Shown piece by piece: positions 16,066-44,623 of a stretch of DNA of 64,000 nucleotides. Where the stretch lies: assembly GCA_964653435.1 (NCBI GenBank), contig CAZZFA010000013.1, forward strand, positions 7,407 to 71,406, written 5' to 3'. Under the pieces are notes generated by a model. That model worked only from the letters and a program-made list of their open reading frames with translations, searched no databases and was not told the DNA's origin. This DNA is from an uncultured Planctomycetales bacterium. GTDB taxonomy: Bacteria > Planctomycetota > Phycisphaerae > UBA1845 > PWPN01. Numbering within the stretch: position 1 is the first letter of the stretch; each line of letters begins with the position of its first letter. The position numbers and the translations under genes were made by a program.

Positions 16066-17180
16066 TACGGCCGGCGGCGGAGCCACGAAGGGCTGAGGCG
16101 ACGAAGGAGAACGCGACGCGCCGTTTCCGCGCGGGGGTACGGATCGCGCTGGTCACGGCCCTGCTTACCGCGACGGATGCGGCGGCGGACGAGATTCAGA
16201 CCGTCACGAACGCCCGGTACGTCTCCGTGCGACTGGAGGATGTGAGGGACGGAAAGCTCATCTTTCGCGACGTACAGGGCCGTACGGCGGAGCGTGCGGT
16301 AGTGGATGTACGGACGCTGATGATCACCGGCTGGGAGGCATTCAACCGGGCGGAGGCGTCTCTGGCGGCGAGGCAATACCGGCAGGCGGCACGGGAGTTT
16401 GAGGCGATCCTTCGCGATGTGGAGCAGGCCGGGCCGGACGTGGGCCGGCCGCGCCATCGCCGGGAACTCGTACTGGCGCGGTTCGCCACCGCGTGTGACG
16501 GCGAGGGGCGCTTTGACCGTGCAGTGGAGGCATATATCGCGCTGTGCAAGGCGTGGGGCGCGGGCGCCGAGGGCCTTGAGCCGAAAAACGTACCGCCGCG
16601 GGAATCGGCGTTTTATGCGGCGGCGACGGAGGCGCTGGCTGCGGCGATTTCCGAGGCCGCGGGAACGGCGGCCGGCGACCTGCTCCGCCGGTACCGGGAG
16701 CGGCTGGCCGGGACACCGGCCACACAACCGGCGAGCCGGCCGGCCGTGGTCAAGCCGACCGTGAAGCCCGATCCGCACCCACGCGAGGGCCGCCGGGAGA
16801 CGGATCCGCGACTGACGCAGGTCAGCCGATGGATCGACGCAGGCCAGACCGACCGGGCGGCGAGACTCATCGACGCCGTGCTGCGAGCCGGGCCCGTGGA
16901 GACGCTGGCACCGTGGTATTACCGGCAGGGCCGGTGTCTGGAGGCAGCCGCAAAGAGTGACGAGGACCGCCTGCGGGCGGCGCTGGCGTACATGCGCGTC
17001 CCTGTGCATTACCCGGGCGATCCCCTGTGTGCCGAGTGCCTGTACCGGGCGGCGATGATTCACATCCGGCTCGGCCACGCGGACCGGGCGACGGGACTCT
17101 TGCGCGAGGCGATGCGGTATTCGCCACCGGCCGATCTCAAGGCTCGCTGCGAACAGGCGATGCAAGAGGCCTGTCGGTAG
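16062..17180 (+). CDS. Secreted TPR-like alpha-helical repeat protein
   Basis: ATGA overlap with the vWA gene; hydrophobic signal; TPR-like helices such as AALAYMRVPVHYPGDPLCAECLYRAAMIH. Confidence 0.75.
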   Translation: MIRPAAEPRRAEATKENATRRFRAGVRIALVTALLTATDAAADEIQTVTNARYVSVRLEDVRDGKLIFRDVQGRTAERAVVDVRTLMITGWEAFNRAEASLAARQYRQAAREFEAILRDVEQAGPDVGRPRHRRELVLARFATACDGEGRFDRAVEAYIALCKAWGAGAEGLEPKNVPPRESAFYAAATEALAAAISEAAGTAAGDLLRRYRERLAGTPATQPASRPAVVKPTVKPDPHPREGRRETDPRLTQVSRWIDAGQTDRAARLIDAVLRAGPVETLAPWYYRQGRCLEAAAKSDEDRLRAALAYMRVPVHYPGDPLCAECLYRAAMIHIRLGHADRATGLLREAMRYSPPADLKARCEQAMQEACR

Positions 17181-17253
17181 TGCCGTTTCCGGTGAGACAG
17201 TTTCGCATGCGGCGAGCCGCGCGAAATCGTCCTGCCGAAGACGGTGGCAGCGC

Positions 17254-17577
17254 TCAATGCTCGTGCTCGTGTTTGGCGCAGTGCGGGCAGAGGAACCGTG
17301 TCTTGCGGGATCGCCCCGACGTCGGCGCCAATTCCGCGGGGAATTCATAGCCGCAGCAGCGGCACTTGCGCGGGTTGGTCTCCGCGACGCGGCGAGTCCA
17401 CCATCCCGCGACGAGGCTGGGAAGTACGCCGCGGCCCTGACAGAGCGGACAGACATCGTAGAATCGCTTCAGGACGGCTTCGCGGATGAAGGACGATTTG
17501 TCCGGCAGCCGACTGAGCATCTCGGCGAGGTGGGCATCCACGCGAAACGATACGACGACCTGTTTGTCTGTTGCCAT
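17254..17577 (-). CDS. Small ribbon-helix-helix (CopG-like) protein fused to Cys-rich Zn-finger-like C-terminus
   Basis: VVVSFRVDAHLAEML...KSSFIREAV (RHH pattern), then CPLC, CRCC, CPHC and HEHEH. Confidence 0.7.
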   Translation of the reverse strand: MATDKQVVVSFRVDAHLAEMLSRLPDKSSFIREAVLKRFYDVCPLCQGRGVLPSLVAGWWTRRVAETNPRKCRCCGYEFPAELAPTSGRSRKTRFLCPHCAKHEHEH

Positions 17578-17671
17578 GAAGAGTCTCCCTCGGGCGGCCG
17601 TCGCTGCGGCTGCCGCGATCCGGTATTATGGAAGGCGACGGCGGGTCGGACAAGCGGGACGCGAGCCGATC

Positions 17672-17950
17672 ATGTGGAAAGACCTGGACCTCTTTGCCTG
17701 TTACCGGTGGTTGCTGGCGATCGTATGCACGATCTACACGATCGTGCGCCTCGCGCAGACGGCCTACGGGTGGTTTGTGTATTTCTGGTCCCCGGCGCCC
17801 CGGATGGGGGTCCTCCGTCGCTACGCTGTCGTGCAGATATTGCGGATTCGCATACGGCGGTTTACGTTGGATCTGGTGCAGATTGCGGGCCTGACGGCGG
17901 CCCTGTTCGCCCTGCTGTGGCTGCATCGCCGTCTGGGCTACGTGAGTTAG
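17672..17950 (+). CDS. Small two-TM membrane protein, unknown function
   Basis: 92-aa ORF with two hydrophobic helices; ends 4 nt before the next gene. Confidence 0.7.
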   Translation: MWKDLDLFACYRWLLAIVCTIYTIVRLAQTAYGWFVYFWSPAPRMGVLRRYAVVQILRIRIRRFTLDLVQIAGLTAALFALLWLHRRLGYVS

Positions 17951-17954
17951 CGGC

Positions 17955-18809
17955 ATGAGCCATCCGGAGAAGACGTCATCCCCCGCCTTGTCGGATCTTC
18001 CGAACGACGAGCTGCGCGAGTACGGCGGAAAGCTCGGGCTGAATCTGCGCCCCGACATGGCGGCCGGCGAGATGCTTCGCCTGATCCGCGCGCGTCAGGA
18101 ACTGCTTATCGAGCTGGACCGGCAGGCGCTGCTGGATATCTGCGTCTGGGCGCGCCGTCCGGTGCGGCAGTCGGCCAGCAAGGAGGAGCTCGCGCGGGAG
18201 ATCGCGGGGATCACGCGGATGCATTTCGACGGGTTATCGCACCGGGGTCTCGTCGCGCTGGCCAGGCTCCGCGGCGTACCGGCGCGCGACGAGGACGACG
18301 ACGCGACGGTAATTCGCCGGATGAAGGATGCAGAGTCGCTCCTGCAGAAGCTGCGGCGAAAACGCCGGGCCCTGGTCGGTTCGCTGCTGGAGAAGATGAT
18401 CGGCGGCGGGGGGGGCGCGGCGGAGGGCGAGTACCGTTTCCTGCCGGAGGAGGCGGGCGGGGCCGCCTTCCGGGAGCAGATCGAGGAAGCGGGGGTGGTC
18501 GGCGGGATCGCCCGGCGCATCCGCGGCGTCGCGGACGACTACGTGCGCGAGAAGCTCGATGAGATCGAGGCGCGGATCGACCGCAAGCTCGACGAGATCG
18601 ATCACCGGCTCGCGGACTGGCGGGACCAGGAGATTGCAAACCGTCTCAAGATCATCAAGATCACTCTGATCGCGTCGATTCTTGTCGCGGCCCTGAGTTT
18701 GGGTTATAGTGCGTTGCGATCGAGGATCGTGAAGCCGGCCGCGCCGACGCCGGCCGCCCAGCCGCTCCACGGGGAGCGCGGCGCGGCGTCCCCGGGGGCT
18801 TCGCAGTAG
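17955..18809 (+). CDS. Protein with three HeH/Rho-N-like helical repeats, a coiled coil and a C-terminal TM anchor
   Basis: Three similar ~35-aa units (DLPNDELREYGGKLGL; ELDRQALLDICVWARRPV..SKEELAREI; GLSHRGLVALARLRGV), coiled coil EKLDEIEARIDRKLDEID, TM IIKITLIASILVAALSLGY. Confidence 0.65.
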   Translation: MSHPEKTSSPALSDLPNDELREYGGKLGLNLRPDMAAGEMLRLIRARQELLIELDRQALLDICVWARRPVRQSASKEELAREIAGITRMHFDGLSHRGLVALARLRGVPARDEDDDATVIRRMKDAESLLQKLRRKRRALVGSLLEKMIGGGGGAAEGEYRFLPEEAGGAAFREQIEEAGVVGGIARRIRGVADDYVREKLDEIEARIDRKLDEIDHRLADWRDQEIANRLKIIKITLIASILVAALSLGYSALRSRIVKPAAPTPAAQPLHGERGAASPGASQ

Positions 18810-31250: not shown

Positions 31251-33437
31251 ATGGGGCGATTCGGAGGCGCGCGTGGGTTGCGGGAGCCGCTCGACGTGGG
31301 CAAGGCTCACGTCACAAAGCGGCAAATTCGTGAGCGGCGCCCGTCGGTCGCGGGCGGCGTGAGGGGCGTCACGCAAGGCAAGCTGAAGGGCCGCCGGCCC
31401 GCGCGGGATGCGCTTGTCGCAACGCTGACGGCGCTGGCGGTGGTGGCGAGCCCGGCTCGCAGTCTCGCCGTCGATGCTATCAGTGTCGAACTGGTGGGCC
31501 AGTACGGCGGGATCAGCTACGCCGTGGCGGTCGAAGATGACCGCGCTTATCTGGGCGCGGGGCCGCGGTTAGTCATCCTGGACGTCGCGAGTCCGGCGGT
31601 TCCGCGCGTGCTCGCATGGAGCGAGACGCTTCCGGCGATCGTTCGTGGCGTGGCGGTTGCTGGCGGCTATGCGTATGTCGCGGACGACGCTGCCGGCCTT
31701 CAGGTCGTCCAGGTTTCGAATCCGGTCTCTCCTGTCCGCGTGGGGAGCTGCGCAACGGGCGGACTGGCTCTCGGCGTTGCAGTATGCGGCAATTATGCGT
31801 ACGTCTGTGATTACTACCTTGGTCTACTCGTTATCGACGTCTCGAATCCGAGCTTGCCCGTCCGCGTCGGTGGGTACAATACGCCGGGGCGCCCGCGGGG
31901 CGTGGCGGTTGCCGGCCGGTACGCCTATGTTGCCGCCTATACCGGTGGCTTCCAAGTGATCGACATCTCGAATCCTGCGGCGCCGACCCTCGCGGGCGGT
32001 TGCGGGACGACGGGGTATACCTATGACGTGGCCGTCGCCGGGGCCTATGCATACGTAGCCTGTTCTGACGCAGGCATCGATGTGATCGACATATCTGACC
32101 CAGCCTCGCCCGTCCGCGTGGGTGGCTACAGCACGGGGCGGCAAGCGCTGGGTGTCACCGTGTCCGGCACAACCCTGTATGTGGCGGCCAATGACGGGGG
32201 CCTGCAAGTGATCGATATATCCAATCCCGCCTCGCCGGTTTGGCTCGGCGGCTGTGCCACAGGAAGCTACGCTCATGATGTCGCCGTGGTTGGTCTTTAT
32301 GCGTACGTAGCCAGTCACGACCTCGGCGTGCAGGTGATCGACGTCTCGAACCCCGTTTCACCGGCGCGCGTGGGCGAGTACGACGCAACCGGCTATTCTT
32401 TCGACGTCGCCGTCCGCGGCACTTATGCATATCTGGCCGATTGTCATTTCGGCCTGCAGGTCATCGATATGTCGAGCCCCGCCTCGCCCGTTCGTGCGGG
32501 CGGCTACGACACGAGCGGTTGCGCGCGGGGCCTGACCCTTTCGGGCACCTACGCGTATGTGGCCGATGTGGAAGCCGGCCTGCAAGTGATCGACATTTCA
32601 AATCCGGTTGCACCGTTCCGGGCGGGCGTCTGCGACACCTCGGGCTCCGCGTACGGCGTGGCCGTCGTCGGGGGCTATGCATATGTGGCGGACGGCGAAG
32701 CCGGCCTCCAGGTCATCGACGTCTCAAACCCTGCTTCGCCATTTCGCGTGGGCGGCTGCGATACACCCGGGTTTGCGCACGGCGTAGCCGTATCCGGAGG
32801 CTATGCCTTTGTGGCTGACCGGCAAGCCGGTCTGCACGTCATTGACATCTCTGATCCCCGCTCACCGGTTCGCGTGGCCGGCTACCCGAACGACGCCGGC
32901 GGATCCGCCTATGACGTGGCAACCCAGGGGCACTACGTATACGTTGCCGACGGACCGGCCGGCGTGCAGATTCTTGACGTTTCCGATCCGCCCTCGCTGA
33001 TGTGGGTGGCAACCTGCGACACCAGCGGGATCGCTCAACAAGTGGCGTTGTCGGGCAACACGGCGTGTGTGGCCGATGACGACGACTTCCGGGTCCTCGA
33101 TATCTCAGACCCGGCCTCGCCGCGCGTCGTGGGCGGCTACGACAAAAACAAGTGGGCTATGGGCGTGGCAATGGCCGGCAACTATGCTTATGTAGCGTAC
33201 AGCCAGGGCGGCCTGGTGATCCTGCACCTGGGATACGCCGATCTGGACAAAGACGGAGACGCCGACGTGAAGGACTTTGCCCTCTTCCAGGACTGCTTCA
33301 ATGGTCCGAATGCTCGCCCACGTGCGAGTCATTGCACAGGCGCCGACTTCGATGCGGACGGCGACGTGGACCTTCAGGACTTCTCGGTGTTCGAGGCCTG
33401 TTTCAACGGTCCGAATCGTCCACCGGCGTGTCGATAA
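31251..33437 (+). CDS. Secreted LVIVD-repeat protein (about 14 repeats) with C-terminal dockerin-like module
   Basis: Repeats of GxYAYVADxxxGLQVIDISNPxSPxxVG; C-terminus ADLDKDGDADVKDF..FQDCFNGP...ADFDADGDVDLQDF..FEACFNGPNRPPAC. Confidence 0.92.
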   Translation: MGRFGGARGLREPLDVGKAHVTKRQIRERRPSVAGGVRGVTQGKLKGRRPARDALVATLTALAVVASPARSLAVDAISVELVGQYGGISYAVAVEDDRAYLGAGPRLVILDVASPAVPRVLAWSETLPAIVRGVAVAGGYAYVADDAAGLQVVQVSNPVSPVRVGSCATGGLALGVAVCGNYAYVCDYYLGLLVIDVSNPSLPVRVGGYNTPGRPRGVAVAGRYAYVAAYTGGFQVIDISNPAAPTLAGGCGTTGYTYDVAVAGAYAYVACSDAGIDVIDISDPASPVRVGGYSTGRQALGVTVSGTTLYVAANDGGLQVIDISNPASPVWLGGCATGSYAHDVAVVGLYAYVASHDLGVQVIDVSNPVSPARVGEYDATGYSFDVAVRGTYAYLADCHFGLQVIDMSSPASPVRAGGYDTSGCARGLTLSGTYAYVADVEAGLQVIDISNPVAPFRAGVCDTSGSAYGVAVVGGYAYVADGEAGLQVIDVSNPASPFRVGGCDTPGFAHGVAVSGGYAFVADRQAGLHVIDISDPRSPVRVAGYPNDAGGSAYDVATQGHYVYVADGPAGVQILDVSDPPSLMWVATCDTSGIAQQVALSGNTACVADDDDFRVLDISDPASPRVVGGYDKNKWAMGVAMAGNYAYVAYSQGGLVILHLGYADLDKDGDADVKDFALFQDCFNGPNARPRASHCTGADFDADGDVDLQDFSVFEACFNGPNRPPACR

Positions 33438-34592: not shown

Positions 34593-35909
34593 CTACGCAG
34601 ACAGATCGGCTTCCCGCGTTCGGCGCGCCAAGCCGAAGGCTGCGCCACAGAGAAACATCGGCAGCGCAAGGCCGATCCCCGGGCAGACCCAGATAACGGC
34701 CTGCCCCCCCGTGCCCTCGGTGGCGGGCGAACCGTCGCCGCCACCCGGCTGGTTGGACGTTCCACCGTTGCCGTTATCGCCCGCAGGCACGTAAACGGCC
34801 GCCGGATCCACAGGCTCGCTGCCCACGGGGACGCTCACGCCGTCGATCGCAGCCAGCGAGGTGAGCGAATGATCCGTGCAATCGCTGATCAAGACGCGAA
34901 CCCTGCCGTCATCCAACGGAGAGACGTCGAAGCCCCACGTGTATCCCACGCATCGCCCGCTCCGTTCGGGGTCGAACATCCGGCTTACGTCGGCCACGGC
35001 GAGCACCTGCTTGGTTGACAGATCGAGTTGCATCAGTGATGTCGTCGGGCTGGACGCGTCAACGTCCGGAACGAACAAGACGAACGCGATGTCGCCGACC
35101 ACGTCGAGTCCAACGATGCGAGTCCTGCCCGGAATCACAGGGTTCGTAATGTTTGCCACCCCGGTTTCGCCCGCAAGGCCGATGTACGGGTTCGCGGAGA
35201 GATCTCCGTTCGGGGCGGCGGGGTCGGCATCGATCAGATTACCCGTCCGGATGTCGAGGAGGAAGATCCCCGCCGTGGTGGTGTCCATCTTGACCAGCGC
35301 TACGGTGTCGTAGGTCTGGCCGGCGACGTCCCGTGTGCCGGCAAACGCACCGCGCATCCGTTCGCCGGGGCCCATCCGAAAAACGCTGTATGGGTTGGTC
35401 ATCTCGAAAGAGACGATACCTTCGCCCCGGCGAACGAAGCGCCCGATACCGGATCCGGGCGAGCGGCCGCTGCCGGCATAGTCAGCCCGCGAGTGAACCA
35501 GCACCCGGTCATCGGATTCATAGTCCATGTCGTAACACCAGCCGAAGTCCAGGACTTGGCTCAGGGCTGCCGCGTCATTGGCTCCGACCGGATTCGGCGG
35601 GGAGCCGAAGTTGATCCGGAGTTCGAGGAGATCGCCGCGCTGGCTGGGCGGGGCCTCCCAGATCATCATGAGCACCCCGTCCGGGTTTCCGGAAACGGGG
35701 CGCCAAGCCAGACCGCCAAAGCCGTAACCGTGATACCACGGATTGTTCGTCGGCGGGTCCACGCGGTAGATCCGCGGATTCGTGAGCTGATAGAAACTCT
35801 GTGCGCCCGCCGGGGCACTTGCCAGAAGCAGCAACAGGCCGGAGAGCGCGAAGGCCGTCATGCCGCGGAAACTCGACGTGTCTGCGGAGGACGTGATACA
35901 GCCGGGCAT
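34593..35909 (-). CDS. Secreted hypothetical protein with C-terminal Cys/Gly-TM-Arg putative sorting tail
   Basis: GGAGA RBS before ATG 35909; signal peptide ending AGA-Q; Gly/Asn/Thr linker, then VCPGIGLALPMFLCGAAFGLARR. Confidence 0.75.
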   Translation of the reverse strand: MPGCITSSADTSSFRGMTAFALSGLLLLLASAPAGAQSFYQLTNPRIYRVDPPTNNPWYHGYGFGGLAWRPVSGNPDGVLMMIWEAPPSQRGDLLELRINFGSPPNPVGANDAAALSQVLDFGWCYDMDYESDDRVLVHSRADYAGSGRSPGSGIGRFVRRGEGIVSFEMTNPYSVFRMGPGERMRGAFAGTRDVAGQTYDTVALVKMDTTTAGIFLLDIRTGNLIDADPAAPNGDLSANPYIGLAGETGVANITNPVIPGRTRIVGLDVVGDIAFVLFVPDVDASSPTTSLMQLDLSTKQVLAVADVSRMFDPERSGRCVGYTWGFDVSPLDDGRVRVLISDCTDHSLTSLAAIDGVSVPVGSEPVDPAAVYVPAGDNGNGGTSNQPGGGDGSPATEGTGGQAVIWVCPGIGLALPMFLCGAAFGLARRTREADLSA

Positions 35910-36096
35910 TTGTCTTTCTCCTGTTGGTTCCGGCGTCGTTCCGGAGCCGCGCCGGCCCGGTACGGTCGTGGGACGCCGGCGGGCACGAAGGCATTCTAGC
36001 ATAGTTCGGGTGTCCGGGGCCATATGTACGCCGGGCCGGGCACGCGGCCATCCGTCACCCGGGCACGCAATCCGCGGTGAGCCGTCCGTCATCTTG

Positions 36097-37859: not shown

Positions 37860-38351
37860 CTACCGTGGCAGTTCGTGGAAGTGCAAGTCATCCGTCGCCA
37901 GGTCCAGCGTGGCGACGGTGTGCACGGTCGCGCGGTGCAATGCGCCGGGGTTGATGTAGCGGGTGTGGCCCCGGCGAAAATCGCTGCGCCCGTGCGTGTG
38001 ACCGCTGAAAACGTAGTCCAGCGACGGATCGTGTTGCAGAAGCAGAAACTTCGCCTCATGGCCGTGGGCCAGGGCGATTCGCCTGCCGGCCAGCTCCACC
38101 ACGATGGGGCCGTCGGGCCAGGTCAGGCCGAGCTGCGCCACCTCGCCCGCCAGGCCGTTATCGGGTACGTCCGTATTGCCCCAGACGAACCAGAATCGCT
38201 TCGTGAACGCGGCCAGCTCCTGCAGGATGGCCACCCCGCCGATGTCGCCGCAATGGAAAACCGCGCTTACCCCGTTGCTGCGGAACACTTCGATGGCCTG
38301 ACGAACACGTTTGAGCCGCCCGTGGCTGTCGGAGAGGATGCCGACGATCAT
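37860..38351 (-). CDS. YfcE/MJ0936-type metallophosphoesterase (calcineurin-like)
   Basis: GILSDSHG, FHCGDIG, VWGNTD, LAHGH, FSGHTH and INPGAL. Confidence 0.92.
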   Translation of the reverse strand: MIVGILSDSHGRLKRVRQAIEVFRSNGVSAVFHCGDIGGVAILQELAAFTKRFWFVWGNTDVPDNGLAGEVAQLGLTWPDGPIVVELAGRRIALAHGHEAKFLLLQHDPSLDYVFSGHTHGRSDFRRGHTRYINPGALHRATVHTVATLDLATDDLHFHELPR

Positions 38352-38389: not shown

Positions 38390-39853
38390 TCAGCCGGCGA
38401 GCCGCTGGTCGATGCAGGAGAGCAGTTGGCTCGCCGCCGTGTCGTTCGGAAACCGCCGGCACAAGGCGGCCAGGCTGCTTCTGGCGGCGTCCATCTCCGG
38501 TGCGGATGCCGAGGCGGCCCAGGCGGCGACGCGGGAGACGACGCTGCCGGCCACGCGGCGGAGTTCGTCCGGCGAGTGTGCGAACCACCCGCGGTCGGCG
38601 GCCTCGATCGTCATGCGAATCGCTTCCAGGGGCGCCAGACCGCTCATTCGAGCTATGGCCAGCCTCGCGACCTCGCTGGCGAAGCAGATGATCTGCGGCG
38701 AGGGACCCGCCGGCGGTGCGAGGTCGCGCCAGATGGCGGCCAGCTCCGCCGCGCCGGCCTGACTCAGCAGGGCGTTGAGACGGCCTCTGGCCCGCTCGAT
38801 TATGCGGCGGGAGAGCGTTTCTCCGAGCGGGCACCGCACGGGCCGCTCGAGGTAGGCGGCGGCCGTGTCGATGACCTCCGCGGGCTGCGCCGTGTCGAGG
38901 TTGTCCAGATCGAGACAGGCGTTGCCGATTCGCTCGAGCTCGGCCGCGTCGGCTTCGTTGAAGGCGTCGGCGGTCAGCGAGAGGAGGCGGTCGGTTCGCT
39001 CGCTCGTCAGGAATCGCTCAACGGCAAGCGCCCACGGATGTCCCGGGGGATGCGGCGGGGTTCGCGTGGTGTCCGCAAAGGCGAGCGACCGGCCGCGAAC
39101 CGCCTGTAGTGTGCGAGCGGGCTCGCCCGTGAGGACGGTGAGACGTCCGAGCCTCCCGATCGAGAAGCGGACGCCCGCGGAGAGCGGGATGGCCGGCCGG
39201 AGTATGCCGGGCACCGACAGGAGCACCGCCTCGGCAACGGCCGGCAGATCTCCCGTAGTGTGGACGATCACCGTTTCGTCGGACACGAGCTTCTCGACGC
39301 AGTGGGTGATCCAGGCGTGGCCGACCCGGCTCAATGCAGTGGCGAAACAGGCGCGGGTTGTGCGGGTTCCGGTGACGAGCCTCGCGGGCTGCAGGGTCCG
39401 GGCGGGCGTGAGGTCCGCCTGGAGAAGGCCCGCCGCCTCGGCGGCGCGGAGCACGTCGAACGGATTGTTGTGAAAGCGGCGCAGCGCGTCGGCATCCAGG
39501 ACGAATGCCCGCGTATATGCGCGAAGGCCTCCGCGCCCGGTGGGTTCCTTGCCGGCGTACGTGCTGTGGAGCACGGCATACCGGCCGGTGCTCAGCGGGG
39601 CAAAGGCGATCCCGAATGCCGCGGGGGTATCGTCGCACAGCCCGTCTCCGGAGGGCGAACGCGAAGCGATTTCGGCGGATTCGGTATGGTGAAGGCCGTT
39701 GGTAGCGGCGACGATGCGGTAGCCCTGGCCCAGGGCGGAGCGAATACACGTGAAGATCGCCTGGTCGCAGGTCACCGTGGCGGAGTCCGGCTGCGTTCGG
39801 ATGGGTTCACAGGGGGCGGTCGCTAGCTGGTCCGAATCCGATCGATAATCCAT
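38390..39853 (-). CDS. GAP1-N2-like (GTPase-associated protein 1) domain protein with helical C-terminus
   Basis: CDQAIFTCIRSALGQGYRIVAATNG...RSPSGD, FAPLSTGRYAV, GRGGLRAYTRAFVL..L.RFHNNPF match the recalled GAP1-N2 pattern. Directly downstream of and overlapping a TRAFAC GTPase gene. Alternative start GTG 39775. Confidence 0.65.
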   Translation of the reverse strand: MDYRSDSDQLATAPCEPIRTQPDSATVTCDQAIFTCIRSALGQGYRIVAATNGLHHTESAEIASRSPSGDGLCDDTPAAFGIAFAPLSTGRYAVLHSTYAGKEPTGRGGLRAYTRAFVLDADALRRFHNNPFDVLRAAEAAGLLQADLTPARTLQPARLVTGTRTTRACFATALSRVGHAWITHCVEKLVSDETVIVHTTGDLPAVAEAVLLSVPGILRPAIPLSAGVRFSIGRLGRLTVLTGEPARTLQAVRGRSLAFADTTRTPPHPPGHPWALAVERFLTSERTDRLLSLTADAFNEADAAELERIGNACLDLDNLDTAQPAEVIDTAAAYLERPVRCPLGETLSRRIIERARGRLNALLSQAGAAELAAIWRDLAPPAGPSPQIICFASEVARLAIARMSGLAPLEAIRMTIEAADRGWFAHSPDELRRVAGSVVSRVAAWAASASAPEMDAARSSLAALCRRFPNDTAASQLLSCIDQRLAG

Positions 39854-40713
39854 TCGAACGGCTCCAGAATGCCGCGGGGCGCGACATGAAGCGGAATGGG
39901 CACCACGGTGTCGTCCTCGTCCCGCGCGAAGGCGAGCGAGCCGACGGTACTCGCGGCGAAGAACTCGACGTTCTCAAAGCGGCTCTGGCAGATGTTCCAG
40001 AGCCGGTTCAGGTTCGTTTCCGCAAAGGCCCGCGGATTATCGAAGCATTCCGGGCAGTAGTCCGCCTTGCAGAGGACCACTGCGATGGGGTTGCCGGCCC
40101 GTCCGCCGCGCCGCGTGGCGAAGCTGCGGTCGACGTAACTCATGAGTTTCAAGGCGAAGTAGTCCGGGTGCGGCGAACCGGACGCGGCGACGGCCGCATC
40201 GATCAGGAGCAGAGCGCCCGCGCTCTTGGCGAGCAGTCCGGTGATGGCGCGGTAGGTCTTGGGTGTTTCCACTTCCTGGGCGAGCGCTTCGCCGGCCATG
40301 TCGGGCAGGAGAAGGTCGAACCACTCCTCGCTTCGCCCGTCCCGATGGCGGACCTGGTAGTAGGCCCATTTCCAGTTGTCGACCTCGAGCGGCGTCTTCG
40401 GCGGAAACCGCCGCGCGCTCATGTGTCCGATCACCGACTGCTGGAGGTTGACGGAGTATGCGCCCTTCGGGATGGCCTCAAAGCCGCCGGCGCGCTTGGA
40501 GAGCATGTCGAGCAGGAAGCCGAGGTAGACGGTCTTGCCGACGTTCGACTCTCCAAGAATCGTGATGATCTTCGGCTCGCGCTGCTGGATCGCGGCCTCC
40601 TCGATCAGCGACATGGGAGCCCCGCAGCCCGAGCACAGCATCGCGTCGGGCGGGTTCTGCCGCTCGCAGATAAGGCATTGGCTGGCCGTGAAAGCTGTCG
40701 TTCCTGACGCCAC
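39823..40713 (-). CDS. TRAFAC-clade (DO-GTPase2-like) GTPase with N-terminal zinc ribbon
   Basis: CLIC-x10-CSGC; G1 GESNVGKT; G3 DMAG; G4 CKAD; G5-like AAST. Confidence 0.82.
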   Translation of the reverse strand: MASGTTAFTASQCLICERQNPPDAMLCSGCGAPMSLIEEAAIQQREPKIITILGESNVGKTVYLGFLLDMLSKRAGGFEAIPKGAYSVNLQQSVIGHMSARRFPPKTPLEVDNWKWAYYQVRHRDGRSEEWFDLLLPDMAGEALAQEVETPKTYRAITGLLAKSAGALLLIDAAVAASGSPHPDYFALKLMSYVDRSFATRRGGRAGNPIAVVLCKADYCPECFDNPRAFAETNLNRLWNICQSRFENVEFFAASTVGSLAFARDEDDTVVPIPLHVAPRGILEPFEWIIDRIRTS

Positions 40714-40812
40714 CGGAAGCCTCCGTCGACTCAGGCGGACACGCGGCCGTCGGCGAGTGGCCGCGCGCCGCGCGGCTGCTCGTTCGGCCCTGTTCTCGCC
40801 CGGCCTTTCCCG

Positions 40813-41823
40813 CTATTCATCCTTCAGCCACGTGGCTTCCTCGAGGCTCATGGCGCAGCGGAAGCCCACGTTGTGCGTCCGCGCCAGCGCGATGTGCCCC
40901 GTACGGAACAGCCCCGAGGCCTGCGACTCGAAATAGGTGTCGTACGCCCCGCCGCGCGTGACCTTGAGGTCCATCTCCGCGATGATCGGCGCGCCCGTCT
41001 CCGTGGTGAGCATCAGATCGGCGTCCGTCCATTCCCACACGTTGCCGACGAGTTGCAGCACACCGTTCGGCGCCGCGCCCGCCGGATACGCATCCACGGG
41101 TACCGTGCCGCCCACCCCCGACGACCAGATGTTGCAGCGGTCCCGATCCATCGCGTCGCCCCAGGGGAACCGCCGGAGCAGGTCCGTATCGCTCCGGATC
41201 CGCCAGGTCGCCGCCATCTGCCACTCCGCTTCCGTGGGCAGCCGCTGCCCGATCCAGCGGGCGTACGCCGCCGCCTCGTACCAACTGATTCCCACGACGG
41301 GGTGGCGGCTGAGCGCGCGATCGTGCCGCCCGTTCCGCCAGAACCGCGGCCCCGGCTGGCCGGTCTGGTCGCGCATCTGGATGAGGTGCGGCCAGAGCGA
41401 CTTGGGCCAGAGCTCGAAGTTCTCGTACGCTCCCGCGTCCACGAATCGCTGAAACCGCGCGTTCGTCACGGCGTGAATGTCGAGCAGAAACGGCGCGACC
41501 TCCACTTCCGTCTCGGGCATGCCGGGGGCGTCGACCAGCCCCTGGGGGAGGCTCGCACGTCCCGCCGGCACGAGCGCCATCTGCTGCTCGAGACGCATCG
41601 CCGCTTCACGGCAGATCGTCTTCCCCTCCGGATGGTTCGCCCACTCTTCCCGTCGGGCCAGGATTACGCTGTAGCGCTCCTGTTGCCAGAGCGCCTTGAG
41701 CGGGTCCGTTTCCGCCTTCTCGGTCGGCGCCGGAACGAAGGCCTCGGCCGTCCGAACCGCCGGGGCCGACGCGGTTCGCTCGCTCCTCGTCGCGCCTCGT
41801 CTGGAGAAGATTCTCAATGCCAT
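40813..41823 (-). CDS. FGE-sulfatase (SUMF1/EgtB/PvdO-fold) domain protein lacking the catalytic Cys pair
   Basis: FLLDIHAVTNARF, HPVVGISWYEAAAYARW, RLPTEAEW, RFPWGD, GNVWEWT, RGGAY and NVGFRC; no CxxxxC motif in the C-terminal loop. Confidence 0.88.
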   Translation of the reverse strand: MALRIFSRRGATRSERTASAPAVRTAEAFVPAPTEKAETDPLKALWQQERYSVILARREEWANHPEGKTICREAAMRLEQQMALVPAGRASLPQGLVDAPGMPETEVEVAPFLLDIHAVTNARFQRFVDAGAYENFELWPKSLWPHLIQMRDQTGQPGPRFWRNGRHDRALSRHPVVGISWYEAAAYARWIGQRLPTEAEWQMAATWRIRSDTDLLRRFPWGDAMDRDRCNIWSSGVGGTVPVDAYPAGAAPNGVLQLVGNVWEWTDADLMLTTETGAPIIAEMDLKVTRGGAYDTYFESQASGLFRTGHIALARTHNVGFRCAMSLEEATWLKDE

Positions 41824-41879
41824 CCGTGATTCCGCCTTGACGCCTCGCGCGTCTGCGCCGCCTCGGGGAGCATTCGTCC

Positions 41880-42500
41880 TCACACGCCCATCGCACGCCG
41901 CTTGACATCGCGCCGCAGCTTCAGCAGGGCGGGATCGGTTTCGGCCTCCGCATCATCCCCGCGCGGCTTACCGCCGTTCGCCGGGTCCGCACCCGCCGGC
42001 GAAGCCATAACGGCTTGTTCAAGCTGCCGGCCCAGAGAGGCGATTTCGTTGCGCAGCGTGACGATCTGCTGGCGGGACGAGGCGATAAGCTGCTCATGCG
42101 CGGCGAGCTGCTGCTCCCGGACGGCGAGCTCGGACCGATGCCTTGCGATCTCCGCCTGTTGCCTTTCGAGTTCCTCCCGGATCGCCTTGAGCCGTTGTTC
42201 CTCCGCATTCAGACTGTTCTGCCGTTCCGCGGCGGCGGCGGATGCCCTTTCTGCCTCGGCCTTCGCCGCGGCAACAGCTTCTTCCTGCTGCGTGACGGCG
42301 GCGGATCGTTCGGCCAGATTGCGGTCTATTGCTTCGAGACTTTCCTGGATCTCGCGCAGCGCCTTGTCCCGCTGGTCGAGTTCGGCCGCGCGAGCCGCCA
42401 ATCGCTCCTTCTGCTCCCGCAGCGCCCCGAAGACGGCCTCCAACTCCGCCGCCAAGTCGACCGGCCCCGGCGCGATATCTTGCGCGTTTTCTTCGCTCAC
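41880..42500 (-). CDS. Long coiled-coil protein
   Basis: GGAGG RBS before GTG 42500; E/Q/R/A-rich heptads over about 150 aa. Confidence 0.78.
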   Translation of the reverse strand: MSEENAQDIAPGPVDLAAELEAVFGALREQKERLAARAAELDQRDKALREIQESLEAIDRNLAERSAAVTQQEEAVAAAKAEAERASAAAAERQNSLNAEEQRLKAIREELERQQAEIARHRSELAVREQQLAAHEQLIASSRQQIVTLRNEIASLGRQLEQAVMASPAGADPANGGKPRGDDAEAETDPALLKLRRDVKRRAMGV

Positions 42501-42848
42501 GATGGACCTCCGCACATGAGGGTGTGGATACGCCAACGCGATCCGCCCGGGCCTTTCTTCGGTCAGTCACAAGGGCTACTTTCGGCCGCAAAGTCCTCGC
42601 TGGCAAAACGCCGGCGCGATTGTGCATGCCCCGTCGCCCGACCGATAATCGCGCCGCTGTCGCCGCGCCGGGGTAGTCGCGGAAATAACCGATAGACGAA
42701 CGCCGGATATCGCAGGGCCGTCTCCTGCGAATCGGGATCCGGGTCTCGCGACCAGCCGAACGGCCACTTGGCGGAGCTGCCTACAAGCTGGTAGGATGTG
42801 GCAAGTCGGCCTACCGATCGGTATGACGGCCGACGAGGCGAGGCGCTT

Positions 42849-44411
42849 ATGTCGGATCGCAACGCACCCTCGGCGGTGAAGCGCGAGGTTCGAGAGCTTT
42901 CCCTGCTGTTCGAGATCAGCCAGATCCTCGATGCCAGTCTGGACCTGCGGGACGTCCTGGGGCCGGTTCTGAATGCGCTGGCGGCGCGCATGGGCGTGGC
43001 GCGGAGTACGCTGACGCTGGTGAACAAGGAGACGGGCGAGTTGTCGATCGCGGCCGCACACGGCCTTTCCGCCAGCCAGCAGGAGCGAGGTCGCTATCGT
43101 CCGGGCGAGGGTGTCACGGGGCGCGTCGTCCAGACGGGCCGACCGGCCGTCGTCCCGCGGATCTCGGAGGAGCCGCTCTTCCTCAACCGCACGGGCGCCC
43201 GAAAACGCCTCCGCAAGAAGGACATTTCGTTCATCTGCGTGCCGATCAAGCTCGGCAACGAAGTCATCGGGGCTCTCAGCGCCGACCGCCTTTTCGCGGA
43301 AGACGTTTCGCTGGAGGAGGATGTGCGTCTTCTGTCGATCATCGCGTCGATGATCGCGCAGGCGGTCCGACTGCGGCAGACGGCGCTGGAGGAGCGGCAG
43401 CATCTGCTTGAGGATAACGTCCGGCTGCGGGACGAGCTGAAGGAGCGGTTCCGCCCGGCGAACATCGTGGGAAACTCCAGGGGCATGCAGGCCGTCTACG
43501 ACCTGATCGCTCAGGTCTGCAAGAGCGACACGACGGTACTGATCCGCGGCGAGAGCGGTACGGGCAAGGAACTGGTTGCCAACGCCATCCACTATAACAG
43601 CCCGCGCGCCTCGAAACCGCTGGTGAAGGTTAACTGCGCGGCGCTGCCGGAGAGCGTCCTCGAGAGCGAGCTGTTCGGCCACGAAAAAGGGGCGTTTACG
43701 GGCGCCCTGGCCATGCGGAAGGGGCGGTTCGAGCTGGCGGAGGGCGGTACGTTGTTTCTCGATGAGATCGGCGACTTCTCGGCCGCGACGCAGATCAAGC
43801 TGCTTCGCGTGCTTCAGGAGCGGGAGTTCGAGCGGGTCGGCGGCGTCACGACCATCAAGGCCGACGTGCGCGTCATCGCCGCGACCAACCGCAACCTGGA
43901 GGCGCTGATCGAGAGCGGAAAGTTCCGCCAGGACCTCTACTATCGTCTGAACGTCTTCCCTATCCACATCCCGCCGCTGCGCGAGCGCAAGGCGGACATC
44001 CTCCTGCTGGCGGACTACTTCGTCGAGAAGTACGCCAAGGCGAATCACAAGGCCGTCCGCCGCATCTCCACGCCGGCCATCGACATGCTCATGGCGTATC
44101 ACTGGCCGGGCAATGTCCGTGAGCTGGAGAACTGCATCGAGCGGGCTGTGGTCCTGAGCAACGACGACGTGATCCACGGGCATCACCTGCCGCCGACCTT
44201 GCAGACGGCCGAGGCCAGCGGCACCGTGTTCAGCGGGACGCTGCAGGCGACCCTCGATAACGTCGAGCGCGAGCTGCTGCTCGACGCCCTCAAGAGTGCC
44301 CGGGGCAACCGGGCCAAGGCCGCCCGGGCGCTGGGGATCAGCGAGCGCCTGATGGGCCTGCGGGTGAAGAAGCACGGCATCGATGCGAGGCGGTTCCGCG
44401 TCCCGGGATAG
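42849..44411 (+). CDS. NifA-like sigma54-dependent activator (GAF-AAA+-Fis HTH)
   Basis: GAF domain ([14 protein letters not shown]); GESGTGKE; [15 protein letters not shown]; LFLDEIG; [11 protein letters not shown]; C-terminal [16 protein letters not shown]. Confidence 0.93.
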
Positions 44412-44623
44412 TCGGAATCGCTCCTCGCTTGCCGCCGACGCATTGTGAAGCACCGGGGAGCACGAAGACGCGCCTCGCTTCTCCTGCGGCTTTCCTTCGC
44501 GCCCGGCAGCGTGTTTGATCGTCCTTCCCCGTCGGTGTACAAGACCGCTGCGGGCGGCCCGCCCGGCGGGGGCGGGAAACGGGCGTTTGCCCGGAGTTGC
44601 GAGTGCACTGGCAGGAGTACGCC

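Follow-up and report, generated by a model that had tools for sequence, protein, structure and literature searches.

A four-gene cassette built around a zinc-ribbon GTPase

The window analyzed here, a 64-kb (64,000 nt) stretch of DNA from an uncultured planctomycete of the class Phycisphaerae, harbors a minus-strand run of four co-oriented genes that lie head to tail between positions 38390 and 42536 in the list of open reading frames (ORFs). From the upstream to the downstream end these genes encode a coiled-coil protein, a protein of the FGE/C-type-lectin fold (FGE protein), a Zn-ribbon DO-GTPase and a GAP1-N2 protein (GAP1). Likely true starts were assigned from Shine-Dalgarno sequences and from the point at which the alignment of homologues begins. 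The coiled-coil protein (206 aa, 41880-42500, minus strand) thus starts at GTG 42500 after GGAGG, in agreement with the end coordinate of the first-pass annotation, which was made from the DNA letters only, while the ORF list starts it at TTG 42536. The FGE protein (336 aa, 40813-41823, minus strand; 40813-41883 in the ORF list) starts at ATG 41823, and its FGE-sulfatase domain was matched by Pfam at about 40852-41586 on the same strand. The GTPase (296 aa, 39823-40713, minus strand) starts at GTG 40713, again after GGAGG, and GAP1 (487 aa, 38390-39853, minus strand) at ATG 39853, which precedes the stop codon of the GTPase and leads to a frame overlap of 31 nt. Coiled-coil and FGE genes are separated by 56 nt and FGE and GTPase genes by 99 nt (GTPase/GAP1: -31 nt), so that the four co-oriented genes with small gaps or overlaps of the first-pass annotation were confirmed.

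No transmembrane helix or signal peptide was detected in the four proteins by hydrophobicity (Kyte-Doolittle, 19-residue mean), the highest mean, 1.66, being reached by a beta-strand in the GTPase core; that none of them carries a signal peptide had been noted before and holds. Antisense ORFs of 205-625 aa at 40873-41829 (plus), 39886-40707 (plus), 41902-42519 (plus) and 42576-44453 (minus) were rejected as high-GC artefacts, because the frames opposite to them hold Pfam domains, homologues and low dN/dS values. A G+C content of 65-69%, as found here, is a typical source of such long antisense frames.

The family assignments, which had initially been made by eye, were borne out by Pfam. The GTPase matched the DO-GTPase families (PF19993 / PF19975), DO-GTPase2 with 46.8 bits and DO-GTPase1 with 45.4 bits (cut-off 27), with the DO-GTPase2 match spanning positions 2-199 of the 226 in the profile. 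GAP1 matched GAP1-N2 with 42.9 bits (cut-off 24) and the FGE protein matched FGE-sulfatase with 141.9 bits (cut-off 23.3).

Conservation of the cassette in Planctomycetota

Related loci were collected starting from two of the four proteins and from whole genomes. A word-indexed search with GAP1 returned 11 proteins, and contig look-ups for three of them led to four loci, among which one place is represented by two nearly identical copies. When one genome per GTDB species was scanned, 19 loci were obtained, each in a different assembly and all from metagenome-assembled genomes (MAGs) of Phycisphaerae/Planctomycetota; one of them is the contig of L003. The FGE protein as starting point led to three more loci, giving a total of 24 distinct relatives.

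In each of these 24 relatives, all of them MAGs of Phycisphaerae/Planctomycetota, the FGE, GTPase and GAP1 genes directly follow one another in this order on a single strand. The coiled-coil gene lies directly upstream of the FGE gene in 23 of the 24 (the exception being L007), and the GTPase is a single gene in the window as well as in all related loci. The co-occurrence of FGE, GTPase and GAP1 is far beyond chance, and the genes are conserved together, a point for which the first-pass annotation had proposed a neighborhood comparison. If the four genes were neighbors by chance or shared ancestry only and did not work together, this would fit only the immediate synteny of the sigma-54 activator and the YfcE phosphoesterase that flank them in the window, which is lost outside the closest relatives. 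The order of the three genes is kept in loci with otherwise differing flanks, the frames overlap or are tightly spaced, and look-ups that start from the FGE protein recovered the cassette in three of three cases, all of which reduces the probability of mere neighborhood to a negligible one.

At most loci the identity to the window protein is 61-98% for the GTPase, 50-94% for the FGE protein, 28-85% for GAP1 and 27-88% for the coiled coil, with lower values for the GTPase (38%) and the FGE protein (43%) of the outlying locus L004. A search with the GTPase gave 801 clusters, the best 120 of which are all at least 60% identical and stem from two or more orders of the Phycisphaerae, with Phycisphaerales and Sedimentisphaerales among the named sources, and a search with the FGE protein gave 2,100 matches at E ≤ 1e-20, the best 120 all being at least 56% identical. 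The GAP1 profile recovered at least 673 clusters (50% identity) at E ≤ 1e-30, mostly at full length. In comparison to the closest relative, L005 (dS ~0.3), dN/dS amounted to 0.029 for the GTPase, 0.123 for the FGE protein, 0.128 for the coiled coil and 0.250 for GAP1; for the neighboring sigma-54 activator and phosphoesterase, values of 0.048 and 0.181 were obtained. Since dN/dS is low in all four, they are functional genes under purifying selection.

The GTPase has a complete set of predicted nucleotide-binding motifs

All coordinates of the GTPase motifs refer to the minus strand. The N-terminal zinc ribbon (C13/C16/C27/C30) is encoded at 40624-40677, the P-loop or G1 motif (G54-ESNVGK60-T) at 40531-40554, the DxxGE or G3 motif (D138-MAG-E142) at 40288-40302 and the xKxD or G4 motif (K216-A-D218) at 40060-40071. 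These motifs, together with F-P-P-K-T107, are invariant or nearly so in 59-121 homologues, which bears out the intact G1, G3 and G4 motifs and the N-terminal Cys4 ribbon described in the first-pass annotation. All four cysteines of the ribbon (C13, C16, C27 and C30) are invariant and form one ribbon only, not two. The Walker-B glutamate is likewise kept, as D138, A140, G141 and E142 are invariant in 59 sequences.

An AlphaFold2 (AF2) model of the GTPase (pLDDT 81, pTM 0.84) was matched by Foldseek to Rab11, Rab14, Rab9, RABL3, septins, EF-Tu and Rho, while a sequence search of the Protein Data Bank (PDB) with the GTPase gave no match even at E=1. The GTPase is a soluble protein of the TRAFAC class in which a single zinc ribbon at the N-terminus is combined with a nucleotide-binding site that is complete; its gene immediately precedes that of its cognate GAP1.

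GAP1 has a probable DENN/folliculin-type fold

Besides the protein of the window, all of the 11 and all of the 91 relatives scanned with Pfam contain GAP1-N2. GAP1-M was matched in one of the 11 (E 0.016) and one of the 91 (E 0.0019) and not in the window protein, and GAP1-C was matched neither in the window protein nor in the 11 and 91 relatives scanned. The AF2 model of GAP1 (pLDDT 87.3, pTM 0.82) comprises three predicted domains, all encoded on the minus strand: an N-terminal domain of longin topology (residues 26-140, 39434-39778; order b-b-a-b-b-b-a-a), an alpha/beta middle domain with five strands (residues 157-261, 39071-39385) and an all-helical C-terminal domain of ~215 aa in predicted helical repeats (residues 273-486, 38396-39037).

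When the GAP1 model was compared with the PDB by Foldseek, seven of the top eight matches were FLCN (6nzd_H, 8dhb_J), DENND1A/B in complex with Rab35 (6ekk chains A and B, 3tw8), TagF (9t0n) and DENND10 (8p0v_M), with probabilities of 0.69-0.99 and E-values of 1.2e-3 for FLCN, 5.2e-3 for DENND1A, 6.2e-3 for DENND1B and 1.3e-2 for DENND10. The next matches were the NPRL subunits of GATOR1 and the Lst4 longin domain. As a negative control, the model was compared with a library of viral structures (BFVD), where nothing comparable was found. PDB sequence matches of the GAP1 profiles consisted of designed helical repeats only and were set aside as compositional.

The predicted tripartite architecture of GAP1 resembles that of DENND1A/B, which acts on Rab35 as a guanine nucleotide exchange factor (GEF), and that of the GTPase-activating proteins (GAPs) FLCN-FNIP/RagC, GATOR1 NPRL2/3 and C9orf72-SMCR8. 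As in eukaryotic longin-DENN regulators, which are the best structural matches in the PDB, GAP1 is paired with a Rab/Ras-like G domain. Unlike these regulators it shares no detectable sequence similarity with them, and its partner is a zinc-ribbon protein of another TRAFAC family; its helical C-terminal domain is also larger than d-DENN. TagF, which is associated with type VI secretion, is the sole bacterial protein among the top matches (probability 0.99, TM-score 0.40 on the target). It has no sequence similarity to GAP1 and a different context, and TagF is not known to be encoded together with a GTPase. Based on the model, the fold of GAP1 is probably that of a DENN/folliculin-type module, a likeness that may reflect either homology or convergence.

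Residues G44, Y45, P67, G101, R107, P215, R219 and R234 are invariant over 91 GAP1 representatives that are 20-48% identical. In the model, G-x-G44-Y-R46 is located in the loop that leads into strand 2 of the longin-like domain, and E103-x-T-G-R107-G-G-x-R-x-Y-T114 (39512-39547, minus strand) forms the loop between strands 4 and 5. In the longin GAPs FLCN, NPRL2 and SMCR8 the active pocket is built from a catalytic arginine together with a conserved motif that precedes strand 2 (PMC12290439). GAP1 resembles them in having an invariant arginine in the longin-like domain and differs from them in the loop before strand 2, which reads G-x-G-Y-R instead of the GP motif. Analogy with these GAPs makes Arg107 a candidate for an arginine finger or for a key contact with the GTPase.

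DENN and d-DENN domains have been treated as exclusive to the DENN module, which is described in eukaryotes (PMC3521125), and the words longin, DENN and roadblock are not applied to GAP1 in the main-text passages of Kaur et al. (2020; PMC7159879). A literature search on links between bacteria and DENN or between TagF and DENN gave irrelevant papers only.

The FGE-fold protein is predicted to be non-catalytic

The FGE protein shares the FGE-sulfatase/C-type-lectin fold with FGE (SUMF1) and with the FGE-like domains of EgtB, OvoA and SenA. Its PDB sequence matches were EgtB, OvsA and FGE (E 1e-17 to 1e-24). Its NCBIfam scores remained far below the cut-offs (EgtB 110.5 bits vs 360, SenA 94.4 vs 420, OvoA likewise), and these matches were limited to the C-terminal FGE-like domain (profile positions ~195-350), so that the iron-binding domain of the DinB type is lacking. 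At the site equivalent to the Cys-x4-Cys copper pair of FGE (Cys336/Cys341 in the human enzyme), the FGE protein carries the clade-invariant, cysteine-free motif RGGAYDTYFESQ (40921-40956, minus strand). In an alignment of FGE orthologues, RGGA[YF]DTYFExQ was present and without cysteine in 22 of 22. Unlike FGE, EgtB, OvoA and SenA, the FGE protein thus has neither the Cys-x4-Cys copper site nor DinB, and DTYFE stands in place of the former. Because both the Cys pair and the DinB domain are missing, the protein is predicted to be non-catalytic in the senses of FGE and EgtB, in line with the non-catalytic FGE-fold protein that the first-pass annotation had postulated.

Members of this FGE subfamily bear the public names "iron(II)-dependent oxidoreductase", "gamma-glutamyl hercynylcysteine S-oxide synthase" and "SUMF1/EgtB/PvdO family nonheme iron enzyme" (among them P0280, P0291, P0296, P0298 and P0305). 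As the subfamily has neither the DinB iron domain nor the Cys pair of FGE, these names are probably mis-annotations. Together with the best PDB/NCBIfam sequence matches (EgtB, OvsA, SenA and FGE) and the invariance of DTYFE at the former active-site position, they are nevertheless what an enzyme pathway would lead one to expect, with the FGE protein catalytically active as an oxidase or a sulfoxide-synthase-like enzyme and the GTPase as its metallochaperone or assembly factor. The known metallochaperone GTPases UreG, HypB and CobW belong to the G3E family, whereas the GTPase of the cassette is a TRAFAC/DO-GTPase. With the EgtB and SenA scores far below their cut-offs and confined to the C-terminal domain, with DinB and the copper-binding Cys pair absent, and with no place in such a pathway for a coiled-coil or a DENN-like protein, we consider this explanation very unlikely.

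The first-pass annotation had also assigned the role of a sensor to the FGE protein. This does not agree with its being the second most conserved component (50-94% identity), in which no variable region was found and the C-terminal 50 residues are highly conserved over 22 orthologues. The fast-evolving parts of the cassette are instead the C-terminal half of GAP1 and the rod of the coiled coil. Since it is not hypervariable, the FGE protein is unlike a sensor diversified by a diversity-generating retroelement (DGR) or otherwise rapidly diversifying; no reverse transcriptase was found among the neighbors scanned, a search that did not extend to the whole window.

Coiled-coil proteins with a conserved terminal peptide

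The coiled-coil proteins encoded upstream of FGE consist of a rod that varies in length and sequence, a Pro/Ala-rich linker and a conserved tail. Models of SMC, Rad50 and crescentin rods matched the window protein below threshold only, and these matches are compositional. In an alignment of 21 upstream proteins, whose rods are only 27-48% identical, the tail [FL][RK]KLRRD[AV]KR[RK]A[IML]G[V/GM] forms the extreme C-terminus; the coiled coils of L024-L026 carry the same basic tail, and in the window it reads DPALLKLRRDVKRRAMGV-COOH (41883-41936, minus strand). Since the rod is structured, the linker disordered and the terminal peptide conserved, the tail is probably a docking peptide. Its invariance would lead one to expect a receptor that evolves slowly as well, either the FGE protein or the GTPase.

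In 16 related loci a giant coiled-coil gene of about 850-1,460 codons lies divergently just upstream of the cassette (for example, all on the minus strand, L010 891-4670, L013 918-4823, L024 4734-7472, L025 3358-7740 and L026 4584-8009). Its product is rich in Ala, Glu, Leu, Gln and Arg and ends in an acidic linker followed by the conserved C-terminal motif …KLKxLRRLxPxxSxxELLxQI…KKWFxRK; it gave no Pfam match. The gene is not present in the 64-kb window, where the sigma-54 activator holds this position. Very long upstream plus-strand ORFs of L009, L011, L012 and L015 were discarded as over-extended, the real gene being the divergent giant coiled coil on the other strand.

Comparison with GTPase-centric systems and other GTPase modules

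The arrangement as such has already been catalogued computationally. According to the main-text passages of Kaur et al. (2020, eLife 9:e52696, PMC7159879), on which this comparison draws, GTPase-centric systems possess a DO-GTPase with a Walker-B glutamate and a zinc ribbon as well as a downstream GAP1 of the N1 or N2 type, and some planctomycete GAP1-N2 systems carry FGS (FGE-fold) domains. These passages give two paralogous GTPases for only 38% of the systems, one or two N-terminal zinc ribbons for 60% of the DO-GTPases (usually two in GAP1-N2 systems) and a membrane-proximal (transmembrane) component for 67% of the systems. They further describe a third component with FNIII repeats, mobile neighborhoods in which several paralogous copies are possible, and FGS domains as effectors that are shared with vWA-MoxR systems and act as binders without enzymatic attack (PMC7159879).

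The cassette resembles the planctomycete GAP1-N2/FGS subtype of these passages in its zinc-ribbon, Walker-B-Glu DO-GTPase, in the GAP1-N2 gene directly downstream and in the FGS gene. The first-pass annotation saw in it a compact variant with a single GTPase; this view was not supported, as a single GTPase is the condition of the majority, two being found in 38%, and the FGS subtype is described by Kaur et al. (2020). As far as the same passages go, the cassette differs from typical GAP1-N2 systems in having one zinc ribbon instead of two and in being devoid of an FNIII-repeat or membrane component; fn3 was matched neither in the four proteins nor in the neighbors scanned, and was absent among the listed genes of the related loci. 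It also differs in the middle and C-terminal domains of GAP1, which are not recognized by Pfam GAP1-M and GAP1-C, and in the tailed coiled coil (23 of 24 loci) and the giant one (16 loci). Finally, it is strongly conserved and apparently inherited vertically, not mobile.

A precedent outside defense is the MglA/MglB polarity module of Myxococcus, whose single operon encodes a Ras-like GTPase and a roadblock-fold GAP, so that here too a GTPase switch stands beside a longin/roadblock-type regulator (PMC3521125). Unlike GAP1, MglB consists of one roadblock domain only, and the two GTPases belong to different families. The MglA/MglB operon is not known to include an FGE-fold or coiled-coil partner either.

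Conflict system or cellular switch

The first-pass annotation called the locus a candidate conflict system. According to this explanation a variable component would sense an invader, the GTPase would set the threshold and the FGS protein and the coiled coil would sequester the invader or trigger dormancy. It agrees with the membership of the cassette in a family that Kaur et al. (2020; PMC7159879) interpret in this way, with FGS domains as binding effectors, and with GAP1 (28-85% identity, dN/dS 0.25, at least 673 clusters at 50% identity) and the coiled-coil rod evolving much faster than the other two genes.

Most of our data point in another direction. PADLOC-DB 2.0 had no match for FGE, GTPase and GAP1, and the coiled coil matched only compositionally to the SMC-like JetC and LmuB. 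No relatives were found in IMG/VR viral contigs or in phage or plasmid records, and the 19 genomes of the pattern-based scan hold one locus per assembly. Pfam and hydrophobicity gave no indication of a toxin, a nuclease, a peptidase, a pore or a transmembrane part in the four proteins, in accordance with the earlier remark that a nuclease or peptidase effector is not evident. The FGE domain is conserved instead of hypervariable, and none of the cassette genes has a dN/dS near or above 1. The GTPase, which is at least 60% identical across orders in the best 120 clusters, is more tightly constrained (dN/dS 0.029) than the sigma-54 activator next to the cassette (0.048). The loci are located among housekeeping and metabolic genes and not in defense islands. 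With no PADLOC match, no viral, phage or plasmid relative, one copy per genome among the matches, neighbors of this kind and such a constraint on the GTPase, the designation as a conflict system was not sustained, and we regard it as doubtful.

In our view there is an even chance that the locus is a chromosomally inherited, Phycisphaerae-wide version of the DO-GTPase/GAP1-N2 module, which serves the GTP-switched assembly of a scaffold. In this model the longin domain of GAP1 would bind the GTPase, with the G-x-G-Y-R and E-x-T-G-R-G-G loops forming the interface, and GAP1 would set the GTP/GDP state of the GTPase, possibly with Arg107 as arginine finger. The nucleotide state would then control whether GTPase and GAP1 engage the FGE-fold subunit and the coiled-coil scaffold, whose tail would probably dock on a slowly evolving partner, that is a groove of the FGE protein or the GTPase. 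The output would be assembly and disassembly of a cytoplasmic scaffold rather than enzymatic attack. Because of the strong purifying selection, the vertical single-copy distribution, the housekeeping neighbors and the lack of a toxin, we think that a conserved cell-biological role, such as a switch in polarity, envelope or division-type processes, is likelier than defense by abortive infection.

Several points weigh against the scaffold switch. The only published analysis, as far as its main-text passages go, classes the whole DO-GTPase/GAP1 family as conflict systems (PMC7159879), and a literature search found no experiment on interaction, GTP hydrolysis or phenotype of DO-GTPase/GAP1 systems. 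GAP1 and the coiled coil evolve fast, as they would in a conflict system. The genome scan rested on one restrictive peptide pattern, which bears on the presence of the cassette throughout the Phycisphaerae. With regard to the GAP1 fold, the Foldseek E-values lie between 1e-3 and 1e-2 and the TM-scores between 0.17 and 0.40 for one predicted model. Neither GAP1 nor its 91 relatives gave a Pfam DENN or longin match, and the GAP1 profiles gave, the designed repeats apart, no PDB sequence match. Low TM-scores are what would be expected if the orientations of the domains differ.

All planctomycetes lack FtsZ (PMC12673574). A bolder version of the scaffold switch, in which the cassette would be the bacterial counterpart of a eukaryote-type GTPase/DENN-longin pair with filament-like coiled coils and act as core cytoskeletal switch of the FtsZ-less Phycisphaerae in polarity, growth of the envelope or cell division, appears improbable to us. 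If the DENN-like switch were true, GAP1 would represent the first DENN-like GAP or GEF from a prokaryote that is paired with its own GTPase, and this would bear on the origin of DENN modules. If the DENN/folliculin-like fold and the role of the invariant arginine hold, GTPase regulation of the longin-DENN type would exist in bacteria and the "GTPase-associated protein" would gain a mechanism. If the module is a housekeeping one, it would be a candidate for a part of the FtsZ-independent cell biology of planctomycetes and would warn against an interpretation of all GAP1-N2 systems as immunity; should it be a defense system instead, its binding-only output would be unusual. The label "conflict" of the DO-GTPase/GAP1 systems derives from genome context alone. 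Among the versions compared, the Phycisphaerae subtype is the simplest: it comprises four soluble proteins, of which one is a GTPase, and is devoid of a toxin and of any membrane component. Its simplicity and strong conservation recommend it as a starting point for biochemical work. The DO-GTPase/GAP1 family becomes directly testable through the fold proposed for GAP1, the invariant tail with its probable docking function and the way in which the genes are conserved.

A promoter-like element and the genes flanking the cassette

The promoter-like element GAAAGT-N13-GACCGA was found at 42559-42583 (minus strand), ~60 nt upstream of the coiled-coil start. The shared form AAAGTC-N13-ACCGA occurs upstream of the cassette in nine distinct loci from both clades and has few off-target matches. 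Positions of GAAAGT(C)-N13-(G/C)ACCGA are 609 in L003, 5282 in L005, 5974 in L007, 5013 in both L011 and L012, 4395 in L015, 5316 in L016 and 5254 in L018. In L007, which has no coiled-coil gene, the element lies directly upstream of FGE. The element matches neither the sigma-54 nor the sigma-70 consensus and may be a putative promoter for an alternative sigma factor.

Divergently from the operon, the window encodes a GAF-domain sigma-54 activator (Sigma54_activat, AAA_lid_14 and HTH_8; 42798-44411, plus strand). It is adjacent to the cassette only in L001, L002, L003/L006, L005 and L018, where it is 78-97% identical. A sigma-54 promoter (TGGCAC-N5-TTGC) was not matched within two mismatches at 42537-42797, and matches across the window were below chance. 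The activator was dropped as a part of the system, being adjacent only in the closest relatives. A YfcE/MJ0936-type metallophosphoesterase is encoded on the same strand as GAP1, 38 nt downstream of it (37860-38351, minus strand), and may be co-transcribed with the operon in the window; since it adjoins the cassette in L001, L002 and L005 only, it was not retained as a core component.

The flanks of the related loci hold genes for MurJ, RlmN, GroES/EL, FTCD and menaquinone, and further neighbors encode GH127, a transporter of the sodium:solute symporter family (SSF) and a Gfo/Idh/MocA oxidoreductase. In L026 a DDE_Tnp_1 transposase (17028-17906, minus strand) and a weak match to a HicB-like antitoxin (18054-18260, plus strand) are located ~5 kb downstream, beyond FTCD and GroES/EL; this pair represents the sole mobile-element or toxin-antitoxin-like genes in any flank.

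Elsewhere in the window, and unrelated to the cassette, 31251-33437 (plus strand) encodes a protein of 728 aa with 12 LVIVD repeats (482 bits), which is predicted to form a beta-propeller. A further ORF of 499 aa without Pfam match (34593-36092, minus strand) has a hydrophobic stretch that follows a long N-terminal extension and, close to the C-terminus, a second one preceded by a region rich in Gly and Pro, and its product may be secreted or located at the cell surface. The syntenic position in L001 is occupied by an FG-GAP protein.

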